11,474 nucleotides of DNA from Candidatus Heimdallarchaeota archaeon (lineage in GTDB: Archaea; Asgardarchaeota; Heimdallarchaeia; Heimdallarchaeales; Heimdallarchaeaceae), in assembly GCA_019057375.1 (NCBI GenBank), contig DXJF01000065.1:1-11474 (forward strand). The letters run 5' to 3'. This document shows, piece after piece, positions 1 to 11,474 of the stretch. The notes below the pieces were generated by a model. The model was not told the DNA's origin. It did not search any database and worked only from the letters and a program-made list of their open reading frames with translations. Every line of letters starts with the position of its first letter. Position 1 is the stretch's first letter. A program made the position numbers and the translations under genes.

Positions 1-72
1 CTTAAACATAATTCACATAGATCATGTACTATTAAGTAAACATATTTTCACACTACTAAGTTTAACTTAAAC
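1..72 (-). CRISPR. Leader-proximal start of a CRISPR array, truncated by the window edge. Repeat 1 = 44..72 (GTTTAAGTTAAACTTAGTAGTGTGAAAAT, 29 nt), spacer 1 = 8..43 (36 nt), first 7 nt of repeat 2 = 1..7
   Basis: Minus-strand GTTTAAG recurs at 72..66 and 7..1 (period 65 = 29+36, typical of I-B). The repeat has a GTTT start and GAAAAT end like I-B repeats, and lies 100 bp downstream of cas2. Only one full copy is visible, so the 3' boundary is inferred. Confidence 0.75.
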
Positions 73-8254: not shown

Positions 8255-8971
8255 CTATTCTCTAATTGGATTCAGAAATCCAAACCCCATGCTATTTTTT
8301 TCTCCCAATCCTGTGTCCATGATGAATTTAAAAAATTTATTAAGACTTTTATCAGTGGATTCATTTCCAATTTTTCTCCAAGTAGATCCAATATGAATAA
8401 ATGATTTATCACATTTAGAATTGTGTATTATGACTTCTTTCCTAAATTCAAAATCAGAGAATATTTGTTGTTTTAGTTGAAATGATTCATTGAAGAAAAT
8501 ATTGTATTTTTTTACTGCATTCTCTTTTAATCTTCTAAGAAAAAACTCAAAATCTCTATGCTTTTTGAAACTAAAATATTCGTTCTTCTTGCTATCTTTG
8601 TAAAGGACGATTGGACTACCTGTTGTAAATAAAAATTTATTCTGTAGTTCAAATTTCTTAACTGATCTAATTGCGATCGGACATCCGCCTAAATGATACC
8701 CTCTTTGAATATTAAGATTGTACTCTAATGCATTAATGAAGGTTTTAGAGGGAGAGCTAACTAACAAATTCTTGTCTTCATTTTTCTTAAAATCCCCAAT
8801 TGGATAAATGTCATTGAAACAAAAGAATTTGAATTGTTTCGTATCATGCTTCAGACTTACTTTTCCATTTTGAGTTCTGAAAAGATTGTAAATAAATCCT
8901 TGAACATCATGTTTAGTTACACGACCATCCGCATAATTCCACTTTGGGTGAAATTTGATTAATAATCTCAC
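8255..8971 (-). CDS. cas6: CRISPR RNA endoribonuclease Cas6
   Basis: KHD..FKFFCF region, TGSPIV, and C-terminal Gly-rich loop GLGEKNSMGFG. Start placed at GTG 8971 (MRLLIKF, AGGTAA 5 nt upstream); the ORF track uses ATG 8989. Confidence 0.95.
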   Translation of the reverse strand: MRLLIKFHPKWNYADGRVTKHDVQGFIYNLFRTQNGKVSLKHDTKQFKFFCFNDIYPIGDFKKNEDKNLLVSSPSKTFINALEYNLNIQRGYHLGGCPIAIRSVKKFELQNKFLFTTGSPIVLYKDSKKNEYFSFKKHRDFEFFLRRLKENAVKKYNIFFNESFQLKQQIFSDFEFRKEVIIHNSKCDKSFIHIGSTWRKIGNESTDKSLNKFFKFIMDTGLGEKNSMGFGFLNPIRE

Positions 8972-9019
8972 TATGATTACCTTCTCCATTTTTAGTTCAA
9001 GAATTTAAAAATGTAGCTT

Positions 9020-9117
9020 AAAATAGAAAAAATAGTAAAAAATATAAAGAAAAAGAACATAATTACCTTGGAAGCTTCAAGTCCGTAGACAGAAGTTGAG
9101 GAGATTTTATACTCCTC
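9020..9117 (-). terminator. Candidate terminator/attenuator: GAGGAG/CTCCTC hairpin (9098..9117) followed by oligo-U tracts (9054..9020)
   Basis: 6-bp GC-rich stem 10 nt after the micro-ORF stop; several T4-T6 runs downstream on the minus strand. Confidence 0.45.
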
Positions 9118-9127
9118 TTAATCCGCT

Positions 9128-9199
9128 TTATGGAACTGGAAGGGGTTCAGGGTCATTTGGGTCACCATTTGGAGGACAAATCCAATTATCTGATTTCAT
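9128..9199 (-). CDS. Unannotated 23-aa proline-rich peptide MKSDNWICPPNGDPNDPEPLPVP (29 aa if started at ATG 9217)
   Basis: Open frame ending TAA at 9128..9130. GGTGA RBS 4 nt upstream of ATG, the same spacing as cas1 and cas2. Locally GC-rich in an AT-rich intergenic region. Confidence 0.6.
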   Translation of the reverse strand: MKSDNWICPPNGDPNDPEPLPVP

Positions 9200-9242
9200 T
9201 TTCTCACCACTTTTCATTGATGATCTTAATGGAATGGACAAT

Positions 9243-9341
9243 AACAAAGAGTTGTTGTACAGTTAGCAATACGCAAAAGATTGGAATTCATCAATTCCAG
9301 AAGGTGAAAGCTGAAATTATTGATTGTCCAAGAATGGACAA
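9243..9341. repeat. Three perfect inverted repeats with 4-nt centres: AACAA-AGAG-TTGTT (9243..9256), TGGAATT-CATC-AATTCCA (9282..9299), TTGTCCA-AGAA-TGGACAA (9324..9341)
   Basis: Read directly from the sequence; centres at 9249.5, 9290.5 and 9332.5. Confidence 0.8.
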
Positions 9342-9358
9342 AGTTTCTTTCGGAATAA

Positions 9359-9391
9359 TTTAATAGCTTATCTATATTCATAATTATATAA
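9359..9391. promoter_or_regulatory. Candidate overlapping divergent TATA boxes: TTTAATA 9359..9365 (+, regulator) and TTATATAA 9384..9391 (-, peptide)
   Basis: TTTAATA lies about 30-35 nt before ATG 9394 (near-leaderless mRNA). TTATATAA is too close to that ATG to serve it but could drive the minus-strand transcript. Confidence 0.35.
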
Positions 9392-9393
9392 CA

Positions 9394-10827
9394 ATGACAT
9401 CTGATTCATCTTCTTTGACAAAGATAAGTCTTAATGAGGTAAAAGAAATTTTAAAAGAAGAATTTCAGTCCTTTAAACATAGATTACTGAAGGATAACAT
9501 TCAATTATACACACCTAAATGGGATCTCTTATGTTTTCAATATTATAATCTCCTTGCATCTCAACCAGAAGTGCAAAGTAGATGGGAAGATTTTTGGGAA
9601 AAAAAAAGCAAATCAATGGAGTACAAAGGATTAGTCTACAAAATACCTGATATATACAAACCATTCATTAATAATCATTCATCGTTAAGCAAACTTTTCA
9701 TGTTACTTGATAAAAAAGAAGATCTTGGTTGGGAAATGTATCTTGAACTATTTTTACACTTGAGAAAGCAAATTTACCCAGAATTTACAAAAACTGAATA
9801 TGAACTTTTTACTACGATCATCAAACATCAAACTTCAGCTTTAACTGATTTAAGCAATTTGTGTAATAAAAATAAATCAAACATTTTGAGATATCTTAAA
9901 TCACTTAAACAAAAAGGATTGATATACGAAGGAATCACAATCAATGTATCAAAATTACTGTTATATCCTTATGTAGTACTCATCCAAAATCCTAAAGGCT
10001 ACAGAGAAGACTTTATTGATACATTTGAAAGTCTTGATTCCTTTAGAAATTTCTATTTTAGTTTTTTAGGAGAAAAAACTCTAATTAGTTTTCATATCGT
10101 AAATGAGAAAGAAAAAAATCTGCATCTTTTAGAACATGAATTGAACCTGATCAAAAAGAAAATTTATCCAGAGAAAGTTGAAATAATAGAACTTAAGAGA
10201 ATTAATAGACTAAAATCTTTCAATTATTCCTTATATAATTATAAAACTACTAGTTGGGAAAATCCTCTAGTAAAATTCGTGGAATTTCACTCAGGAAAAA
10301 CTGGAGATATAACTGAGCCTATAGCTGAATTTTCTGATGATAAACCTTCTTTAATTCAATTGAACAAATCAGGAATAGATATTCTAGAGTATATCATTAA
10401 ATACTGTGATATAACACAGAGTAGAATCCAGAAACATACTCAACTTTCATCTACAATAGTAAGAAAATACATTGATTATTTTAAAGAACAAGAGGTTTTT
10501 ACCACTAGAATAAACCCACAACCTATTTTTGGCTTAAGTAATATAATTATCATATTAGAAGAGAATATACAAAATCAGCTAGATATTCACTCAAGATTGT
10601 CCTTCTTACCAGAAGTTTATTCAGAACCCTATCAATCAAATGAATCAGAAGGGATTGTGTTGATTCTGCGATTACCTCAAGAATGTGTAATTAATTTTGC
10701 AGATTTATTAAGCTTCATGTATAAAGAAAAAATCAAGAAAATATTTCTACTTGAAAGCTTATATCGGAGAAGACGGTCGCTGAATTTCGATTATTACGAT
10801 ACTTTATTAAAAGAATGGTCTAAATAA
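9394..10827 (+). CDS. 477-aa putative transcription regulator: N-terminal helical domain plus two tandem wHTH + Lrp/AsnC-like (RAM-like) units
   Basis: HTH1 aa ~131-178 (TKTEYELFTTIIK...KSNILRYLKSLKQKGLI) followed by INVSKLLL. HTH2 aa ~323-369 (LNKSGIDILEYIIK...STIVRKYIDYFKEQEVF) followed by INPQPIFGL. Both units end in similar motifs, SFNYSLYNYKTTSW and SLNFDYYDTLLKEW. Confidence 0.8.
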   Translation: MTSDSSSLTKISLNEVKEILKEEFQSFKHRLLKDNIQLYTPKWDLLCFQYYNLLASQPEVQSRWEDFWEKKSKSMEYKGLVYKIPDIYKPFINNHSSLSKLFMLLDKKEDLGWEMYLELFLHLRKQIYPEFTKTEYELFTTIIKHQTSALTDLSNLCNKNKSNILRYLKSLKQKGLIYEGITINVSKLLLYPYVVLIQNPKGYREDFIDTFESLDSFRNFYFSFLGEKTLISFHIVNEKEKNLHLLEHELNLIKKKIYPEKVEIIELKRINRLKSFNYSLYNYKTTSWENPLVKFVEFHSGKTGDITEPIAEFSDDKPSLIQLNKSGIDILEYIIKYCDITQSRIQKHTQLSSTIVRKYIDYFKEQEVFTTRINPQPIFGLSNIIIILEENIQNQLDIHSRLSFLPEVYSEPYQSNESEGIVLILRLPQECVINFADLLSFMYKEKIKKIFLLESLYRRRRSLNFDYYDTLLKEWSK

Positions 10828-10838
10828 ATGTGACTAAG

Positions 10839-11474
10839 ATGGAGAATATCACAATTACTTCATTCTGTTTATATCCTTTGGTAGAGCTTCTATACAGAGA
10901 AGAGAGAAGAGCTCACTTCAAACTCTTTATTTACACTGAAAAATTTTATAAGATGCTAAGGGATTTAAGAAGAAAAGGAAGGCAGCTTATTCAAGATAAT
11001 GGAAAAGATCTTTTTGTGCCACAATATACAAAGTGCTACTTAAAATGGTCTCCAGATAATTTCATTTATTTTTACAGAAAGAAACGTTATCTATATGAAA
11101 TAAAAAGTTTAAGACCTTTTATACCAATCCAATCGCAATATAATGAGTGGTATCACATTCGATCATTTTTAAAACTAAAACTGGCTTTGAAAAAAGTAAA
11201 ATTTTATCCTCTTTTAGTAGCTGAAAGTGAAAAGAAAGTAGTATTTGATAAATCTGAGATAACAAGTTCACTCAAGTTTATGCAAGTTTTACATGAACTT
11301 AATCAGAATTTTCCACTTGAATTAATAAAAGATGGAAAAAAAGTTTACACAAAAATTTGTATCTTAGCTGCAACATTCAAAGATTATAATGATATACAGA
11401 TTGAAGAATCACCAATAGTCAACTTGGTAGAAATGAGCTTTCAAAAAGCGGTAGAGCTTGATATTCTAAAGAAG
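10839..11474 (+). CDS. Partial ORF (>=212 aa, runs off the window), putative PD-(D/E)xK nuclease-fold protein
   Basis: No stop from GTG 10830/ATG 10839 to the window end. Translation MENITITSFCLYPLVELLYREERRAHFKLFIYTEKFYKMLRDLRRKGRQLIQDNGKDLFVPQYTKCYLKWSPDNFIYFYRKKRYLYEIKSLRPF...; PD-x13-EIK at 11052..11105. Confidence 0.65.
   Translation, partial: MENITITSFCLYPLVELLYREERRAHFKLFIYTEKFYKMLRDLRRKGRQLIQDNGKDLFVPQYTKCYLKWSPDNFIYFYRKKRYLYEIKSLRPFIPIQSQYNEWYHIRSFLKLKLALKKVKFYPLLVAESEKKVVFDKSEITSSLKFMQVLHELNQNFPLELIKDGKKVYTKICILAATFKDYNDIQIEESPIVNLVEMSFQKAVELDILKK

Follow-up and report, generated by a model that had tools for sequence, protein, structure and literature searches.

Judged from sequence comparison, a 23-codon open reading frame (ORF) on the minus strand of the window, the whole 11,474-nt stretch of DNA analyzed here, is a genuine gene, conserved among Heimdall-group Asgard archaea, that had until now escaped annotation. 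It completes a regulator cassette as its third member and travels with the regulator, not with the cas genes beside which it happens to lie in the window. The reading that we favor, giving it somewhat better than even chances, is that its product is a predicted cytoplasmic, acidic, proline-rich peptide and that, as structure modeling suggests, this peptide is the cognate ligand for the double-Lrp regulator encoded beside the ORF. That the cassette also controls the neighboring cas operon is a further step that we put forward tentatively. The complete proposal, an archaeal circuit in which a gene-encoded peptide and a fused double Lrp/AsnC receptor would gate the type I-B CRISPR-Cas operon in the window's clade, we regard as doubtful.

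The window is an entire 11.5-kb contig of a Heimdall-group metagenome-assembled genome (3.47 Mb, 33% GC). Pfam searches identified a complete type I-B operon on the minus strand (cas6-cas8b-cas7-cas5-cas3-cas4-cas1-cas2, from 8989 down to 173), of which the first gene, cas6 (8255–8989, minus strand), is a possible target of the proposed switch. Its start may be a GTG at 8971 and not the ATG at 8989 (window 8957–8989), because the orthologs in L086 and G045 start at the aligned M-R-(L/I)-L-I and GGAGAAGG stands shortly before the GTG. The contig start cuts through a CRISPR array (window 1–72), with a 30-nt repeat at 43–72. Contigs C17 and C103 of genome G000 have arrays of this 30-nt repeat at their ends, so the array beside cas2 is probably split over contigs. 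A 404-nt spacer, in which the micro-ORF is located, separates cas6 from the regulator gene (9394–10,827, plus strand). The regulator is followed by a partner gene (10,830–11,474, plus strand) that is cut by the contig end after its first 215 codons.

The micro-ORF (9128–9199, minus strand) runs from an ATG at 9199–9197 through a further 22 codons to a TAA at 9130–9128, and its product, MKSDNWICPPNGDPNDPEPLPVP, combines a variable stretch (residues 2–12) with a conserved tail (residues 13–23). The initial annotation described a short proline-rich ORF with seven prolines among its last 15 residues, one cysteine, and one tryptophan, and reading the minus strand bears this out. It had placed the ORF at 9128–9217; the stop end stands, and the start at 9217 does not, being an in-frame upstream ATG without a Shine–Dalgarno (SD) sequence, with the SD-led ATG at 9199. 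The SD, GTGGTGAG (9203–9210, minus strand), has its GGTGA core at 9208–9204, 4 nt 5' of the ATG at 9199. The same spacing had been claimed for cas1 and cas2; it is exact for cas1 (GAGGTGA, 4 nt, ATG) and rough for cas2 (GGTGG, 4 nt, GTG). The reported local rise in GC was confirmed (0.39–0.41 at 9050–9199 vs. 0.20–0.33 in the flanks), as was the unannotated status of the ORF, where the gene calls of three public copies of the locus show no gene.

Such an ORF is rare in this genome. Among its 43,379 short ATG ORFs, 26 have at least five prolines in their last 15 residues, and an SD motif, found ahead of only 2% of the short ORFs, is present in only two of those 26 (0.5 expected). Both adjoin the two regulator paralogs of the genome, on contigs C8 and C85. 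Since these are the only two SD-led proline-rich ORFs genome-wide, and both lie beside regulator paralogs, we consider the window ORF to be more than a product of chance. A nucleotide search of the window spacer against 40 relatives returned only chance A/T-rich matches, so the family is detectable only by peptide and layout. Rfam yielded nothing above threshold (RCNMV_5UTR, at 27 bits against a gathering score of 75, is noise), and there was no tRNA. The A/T-rich tract at 9010–9057 is matched by a large number of unrelated contigs from metagenomes (depth up to 228), which makes cover there uninformative for this organism.

The family was assembled by reading upstream of regulator homologs, the regulator family itself having been searched for through the whole order; a metagenome scan contributed one extra locus and a word-based protein search one extra ortholog. 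The regulator family is restricted to a single family of the order, where it occurs in 19 of 30 genomes, with one weak match elsewhere in the order. The micro-ORF was found in 18 loci, which span at least four genera of one Heimdall-group family plus two metagenome contigs, and each locus has an SD, an ATG, and 15–24 codons (orthologs include L086:5745–5816, minus strand, and L081:3176–3250, plus strand). GAGGTGA followed by 4 nt and ATG recurs in L086 and L081, and the SD of the remaining loci is GGAGGTG or a near variant (GAGGTGA, GGAGGTA, AGGAGG). N-terminal halves vary in sequence and length with the frame kept, and a tail of the form P-[DN]-[DE]-P-x-[PF]-hydrophobic-P is present in all 18 loci, ending 0–2 codons before the stop. 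The residues invariant in the family alignment (A3) are M1, P9, P14, P17, and P21, and the four invariant proline columns make use of all four proline codons (CCA, CCT, CCC, CCG). At least five regulator paralogs have no micro-ORF detectable by the filter used. Three tandem regulator copies without detectable micro-ORFs lie at G043:C37:350–5042, one of them with an in-frame TAA, and a second regulator copy at G001:C16:140243–141722 is broken by a TAG.

Variation between strains was available from contigs ~95% identical to the window, which came from sediment runs X2, X4, and X5 of two studies. The variants differ at codons 4, 8, 11, and 12 (D to E, C to Y, N to D, and G to D) and in the stop, which changes from TAA to TGA; no differences occur in the SD, the first hairpin, or the 33-nt tail. 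Frame, SD, and stop are all kept in orthologous regions, and it was on conservation of the frame and of the ribosome-binding site there that the initial annotation had staked the gene.

Codon-position statistics were tried as sufficient proof of coding and set aside: an antisense Gly/Ser frame shares the wobble positions, so the third-position pattern alone does not choose the strand. We prefer the sense frame because all 18 loci retain its SD, start, and stop, whereas antisense reading gives frames that lack a conserved start and end early in four loci. Two plus-strand ORFs, at 9130–9363 (77 aa, no Pfam match) and 9096–9266 (56 aa), were rejected as frames without conserved start or length across loci; the plus-strand ATG at 9130 is the reverse of the minus-strand Pro-stop CCATAA. 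An untranslated RNA or DNA element, such as an sRNA or an operator array with the ORF as a by-product, would agree with the fact that the wobble-sharing antisense frame is also conserved, which leaves codon statistics alone no proof of sense coding, and with a hairpin (described below) that could be a palindromic protein site. We find this highly improbable, given that SD, ATG, and stop persist in all 18 loci while the N-terminal half varies in-frame, that the antisense frames are truncated in four loci and lack a conserved start, that the strain change from TAA to TGA still leaves a stop, and that no Rfam family matches.

The gene neighborhood ties the micro-ORF to the regulator. In all 18 loci it lies 190–250 nt from the regulator homolog, divergent from it in 17 and co-oriented in one (L083), where the inverted micro-ORF unit still adjoins the regulator and points at the regulator gene, with T-tracts between the two. 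Neighbors on the far side vary and include cas genes, a class-V aminotransferase, a convergent sulfotransferase, and a 102-aa Zn-ribbon-like protein that is followed by large surface proteins (PKD or beta-helix). The next gene is convergent in L040 and L041, and its distance from the micro-ORF ranges from ~140 to 870 nt. Cas genes stand beside the micro-ORF in four of the 18 loci; because the other 14 are without them, we regard it as a member of the regulator cassette and not as a Cas component. The initial annotation had made it part of the type I-B cas operon, a placement that fails in view of these 14 loci, the convergent next gene in two, and the co-orientation with the regulator in one.

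Linkage to cas genes is confined to particular branches of the family. The layout of regulator, micro-ORF, and cas6-led type I-B operon is found in three loci (the window, L086 on a JGI contig, and the closed genome G045, from another genus), with the same type I-B gene order after the micro-ORF in each. The JGI contig has a regulator 48% identical and a peptide 61% identical to those of the window, the regulator of the closed genome of another genus is 34% identical to the window's, and the window, JGI, and closed-genome regulators form one clade (support 96/95). In the fourth cas-linked locus the regulator belongs to a different clade, and the micro-ORF points into an unrelated Cas6 (PF19308). 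As one clade keeps the position at the head of type I-B across genera and a second lies beside an unrelated cas6, the cassette may offer a view of how CRISPR immunity is turned on in these uncultured archaea.

Downstream of the micro-ORF, a hairpin of the form GAGGAG-N8-CTCCTC (9098–9117, minus strand) starts 10 nt after the stop, and across loci it is found 10–21 nt after the stop. RNAalifold, applied to 16 loci, had eight of the 10 hairpin pairs kept via changes on both sides. Being a 6-N8-6 palindrome, the hairpin could instead be a DNA site. A second, weaker stem–loop (9072–9096, minus strand) aligns with a better stem in L086. Beyond it lies a run of T-tracts (9020–9057, minus strand), and T-runs occur 70–170 nt past the stop in the 17 loci readable downstream (L084 ends too soon). 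These tracts are probably an archaeal-type terminator of the peptide transcript. A TATA-like A/T box (9001–9014, minus strand) just upstream of cas6, where a ATTTTTAA block is conserved in the window and L086, is possibly the cas operon's own promoter.

This order of elements bears on a second role offered by the initial annotation, that of an attenuation leader, taken here as one for the cas operon, in which pausing on the proline codons would set termination at 9020–9117 against read-through into cas6. On the minus strand of the window, the ORF, hairpin, T-tracts, and cas6 do follow one another within 140 nt, the order is equal in L086, G045, and L097, and in the minimum-free-energy fold the 3' end of the ORF pairs with downstream sequence. 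Yet the fold energy of the whole transcript was not better than that of shuffles (z of −0.5 and −1.5), no conserved pair of mutually exclusive stems was found beside the one covarying hairpin, the TATA-like box intervenes between the T-tracts and cas6, and the residue-level conservation of the tail would be superfluous for simple pausing on proline codons. Because neighbors are convergent in L040 and L041 and the next-gene distance is variable (~140 to 870 nt), attenuation is not the general role of the family; the L083 unit, pointing toward the regulator gene, argues the same way. The idea is possible for the window itself, fails as a family-wide role, and is in our judgment very unlikely to be what the micro-ORF is for.

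Operator-like repeats lie upstream of both divergent genes (neither is assigned to a strand). Inverted repeats of the TTGTCCA type are common to the cas-linked loci. O1 (9324–9341), a 7-4-7 palindrome without mismatch (TTGTCCA-N4-TGGACAA), precedes the regulator ATG by 53–70 nt and has an equivalent in L086 and in L081. O2 (9231–9260), 20–50 nt upstream of the peptide SD, consists of inverted half-sites GTACAA...TTGTCC, and GACAA-N-TTGTCC is conserved there in the window, L086, and L081. TTGTCCA occurs five times in the window (1.4 expected), three of them within the 400-nt spacer. In the same-genus paralogs L034, L037–L041, and L044, a palindrome ATCGGGTAA-N-TTACCCGAT, ~100 nt upstream of the regulator ATG, takes the place of the window's TTGTCCA-N4-TGGACAA. 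Regulators and their operators appear to have diverged in step, as would be expected if each regulator reads its own operator. Separately, a motif of ~20 nt, GAAAAAAGTC-N-AAAATGGTA, is present on either strand in L033, L035, L036, L037, and L044 (e.g., L037:10080–10180), all of them same-genus loci, where it shortly precedes TATA-like boxes to either side of the cassette, with a degenerate copy at window 9020–9045; it may be a promoter-proximal site.

The regulator is a 477-aa single chain, and its homologs across loci are 480–500 aa long. At the sequence level it is recognizable only by its helix-turn-helix (Pfam matches HTH_24 and TrmB), and no RAM Pfam model matched. The AF2 model (pLDDT 73) has an extra N-terminal helical domain of 130 aa, followed by two units, each a winged helix-turn-helix (wHTH) plus a RAM-like beta-alpha-beta-beta-alpha-beta fold. 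The best Foldseek match was NirDL (4ch7, E 6e-8), which is fused double Lrp/AsnC-like, and many Lrp/AsnC regulators matched too, with a Foldseek probability of 1.00 for PH0061, NMB0573, ST1022, and AsnC. The label of tandem Lrp given by the initial annotation holds on the strength of this model and these matches.

In every locus with a readable 3' side, the partner gene comes after the regulator. Its product, ~485–498 aa in relatives, has no Pfam or NCBIfam match. In a full-length relative (L086:7442–8938, plus strand), residues 376–498 model as a winged helix like that of Orc/Cdc6 or MarR (Z ~8, a score common by the tool's own account), and the N-terminal ~370 residues gave no clear match in a wide search that covered this part barely. 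A PD-(D/E)xK nuclease fold, as suggested for the partner, was not confirmed: Foldseek returned nothing at E ≤ 0.001, and the wide search matched the C-terminal winged helix only.

We co-folded the regulator (alignment A4) with the peptide (alignment A3), giving each chain its own family alignment. Three runs scored ipSAE values of 0.02, 0.71, and 0.81 (median 0.71), and the best of three controls scored 0.02. During calibration, 58 of 80 solved complexes and two of 110 mismatched pairs attained the mark, counts that are only roughly valid here because own alignments were used and no calibration chain was shorter than 30 residues. At least 5% of contacts are common to the runs, with a peptide pLDDT of at least 28. 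On the peptide, predicted contacts fall on residue 10 and residues 12–23, which correspond to the conserved tail; on the regulator, they fall on strands of both RAM-like domains, on loop 74–87, and on a basic C-terminal stretch (456–463) that is disordered in the monomer model. Contacted regulator residues include the invariant G180 and L463 and the near-invariant P375 and R460, with conservation across the interface not higher than in the rest of the regulator (0.60 vs. 0.57, p 0.21). Peptide types follow the regulator clades: A Trp at the hydrophobic position of the peptide pairs with regulator Gly/Ala at 194, His at 218, and Phe at 267, and Leu/Phe/Val peptides pair with Val/Ile/Leu/Ser at 194, Arg at 218, and Leu at 267. 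This covariation is explicable by shared descent, because only two clades underlie it. Among the three roles offered by the initial annotation (ligand of the regulator, attenuation leader, and modulator of Cascade), that of a ligand is the one the controlled co-fold supports.

The peptide might be real and have some other target, whether the winged-helix partner protein, Cascade or other Cas proteins, or, once exported, a receptor outside the cell. For the first of these speaks the position of the partner gene, as constant a neighbor as the regulator. We nevertheless rate another target as quite unlikely, since modeling of the peptide with the regulator passed the comparison with controls, none of the 18 peptides has a signal peptide or a membrane segment, and Cas proteins are absent from most loci. 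Mimicry of a PNGDP stretch in Cas7 was considered and rejected: residues 11–12 read D-D in the strain variants and L086 (D-D-D in L086), so the match is lost there and is not conserved.

We therefore return to the regulator as the target. Support for the ligand reading comes from the micro-ORF keeping to the regulator whatever gene is on its other side, and from the fused double Lrp/AsnC fold, since the RAM domains of the Lrp family are known ligand binders. Counted against it are the one co-fold run of three at 0.02, a peptide shorter than any calibration chain, the known ligands of Lrp/AsnC proteins, which are amino acids and not peptides, the paralogs in which no micro-ORF was found, and a build (SD, proline-rich ORF, and hairpin) that is also that of a known ribosome-stalling RNA toxin. 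Readings as a CreTA element, an attenuator, or a non-coding element fit less well than that of a cognate ligand.

Our observations comprise the existence and conservation of the ORF, the fact that it occurs strictly paired with the regulator, the fold of the latter, and a co-fold that passed with controls; the mechanism that we propose builds on them as follows. The micro-ORF would be an autonomous small gene with its own promoter, a strong SD, 23 codons, a hairpin, and a T-tract terminator, and the conserved tail of its product (residues ~12–23, ...D-P-N-D-P-E-P-L-P-V-P) would be the ligand of the regulator encoded ~200 nt away. The regulator would bind the TTGTCCA-type inverted repeats, which overlap both divergent promoters. 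The peptide would dock in the cleft of the two RAM-like domains, against loop 74–87 and the basic C-terminal tail (456–463), and the docked peptide would alter DNA binding by the regulator. The outcome would be a feedback switch for the cassette and, in the window's clade, probably also for the type I-B cas operon alongside. That the ORF is translated, that its product binds in the cell, that the repeats are operators, which way the effect runs, and that cas is controlled are what we infer here.

If the tail is indeed read by the fused double-Lrp protein, Asgard archaea would have a new peptide–receptor pair, and peptides are not known to be read by any receptor of this fold. If the cassette gates the type I-B operon as well, adaptive immunity in the archaea most closely related to eukaryotes would be under peptide-signaled control, possibly at the population level, for which quorum-sensing control of bacterial cas genes is the nearest precedent. 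We know of no established gene-encoded peptide ligand of an archaeal transcription factor, and literature searches likewise found none, nor any paper on a peptide-binding Lrp-type protein or on such a cassette in archaea. The micro-ORFs are in any case a conserved gene family missed by standard gene calling in these genomes. What the window itself newly contributes is the cas-linked clade, the evidence from strain variants, and an explicit test of the CreTA reading.

Several known systems resemble parts of the cassette. In Lrp/AsnC (FFRP) proteins, RAM domains sense the ligand, and a palindromic operator in the protein's own promoter is the classical layout of autoregulation. The regulator described here resembles them and NirDL/AhbAB in its two wHTH plus RAM-like units and in the palindrome in its own promoter region. 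It differs from Lrp/AsnC proteins in being a single chain of two units, in its extra 130-aa N-terminal domain, in matching no RAM Pfam model, and in its proposed ligand, a gene-encoded peptide instead of a free amino acid.

Proline-rich leader and arrest peptides (mgtL, TnaC, and WPP-type stalling motifs) are similar in that a short SD-led ORF with a stall-prone, proline-rich C terminus near the stop is followed by a hairpin and T-tracts. Unlike in those systems, the micro-ORF is not consistently followed by a gene on the same strand, and no pair of alternative structures turned up; the unit probably ends at a terminator of its own, and transcription of the next gene appears to start from a separate promoter.

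CreTA modules are CRISPR-repressed toxin–antitoxin RNAs, and the proline-codon CreT of the type I-F system of P. aeruginosa consists of an SD, a 4-codon proline mini-ORF, and a structure-dependent hairpin (bioRxiv 10.64898/2026.06.02.729485). The micro-ORF shares these three parts, its hairpin covaries, and it can lie inside or beside a type I cas locus, with the window unit heading a type I-B operon. It could on this analogy be a stalling small RNA, a proline-codon toxin or translation sensor in which translating the proline-rich ORF matters and not the free peptide. A stall on PP, DP, or P-stop would harm the cell if the RNA were over-made, or would report aIF5A or proline status, and the neighboring regulator would be a repressor, the whole forming an addiction module or checkpoint beside cas. 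Operator-like repeats that overlap the unit's promoter are in keeping with such a repressor, and most same-genus paralogs (12 loci besides the window) end in two proline codons and a stop. The window ORF, however, ends CCA GTT CCA TAA, without consecutive proline codons before the stop, and other family members end W-P, P-P-M, P-P-F, or P-P-Q. It has 23 codons with a tail conserved at the residue level where CreT has four codons, and at least eight of its tail residues are conserved as amino acids (Asp/Glu and the hydrophobic position among them), of which a codon-level toxin needs none. A creA consists of one or more degenerate CRISPR repeats plus a spacer matching the creT promoter; in 8990–9393 no creA-like repeat was found, the best local match to the repeat at 43–72 scoring 10 against a shuffle mean of 10.2. 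The unit is, moreover, tied to a protein regulator and mostly away from cas genes, and the co-fold pass favors a role at the peptide level. Taken together, we consider a stalling RNA unlikely.

For the cognate-ligand reading, the RRNPP(A) cassettes of Bacillota offer a counterpart, in which a tiny, usually unannotated ORF lies beside the gene of a DNA-binding receptor, with leaderless peptides in the RopB-LCP/SIP systems (PMC10518010). There the receptor is a TPR-HTH protein and the peptide hydrophobic; here the receptor is a fused double Lrp/AsnC protein in which Foldseek found no TPR, the peptide is acidic and proline-rich, and the host is an archaeon. RRNPP peptides leave the cell and are taken up again as cell-to-cell signals; in the present cassette no Opp-type importer turned up, and no transporter is constant across loci. 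The likenesses lie in a small ORF that adjoins the gene of a DNA-binding receptor and carries no classical secretion leader, in a peptide and receptor that diversify together (adjacent in 18 of 18 loci, with peptide types that follow the regulator clades), and in the control of nearby genes, which is here a proposal. By analogy, the leaderless communication peptides of the RopB class are the closest working model for the cassette.
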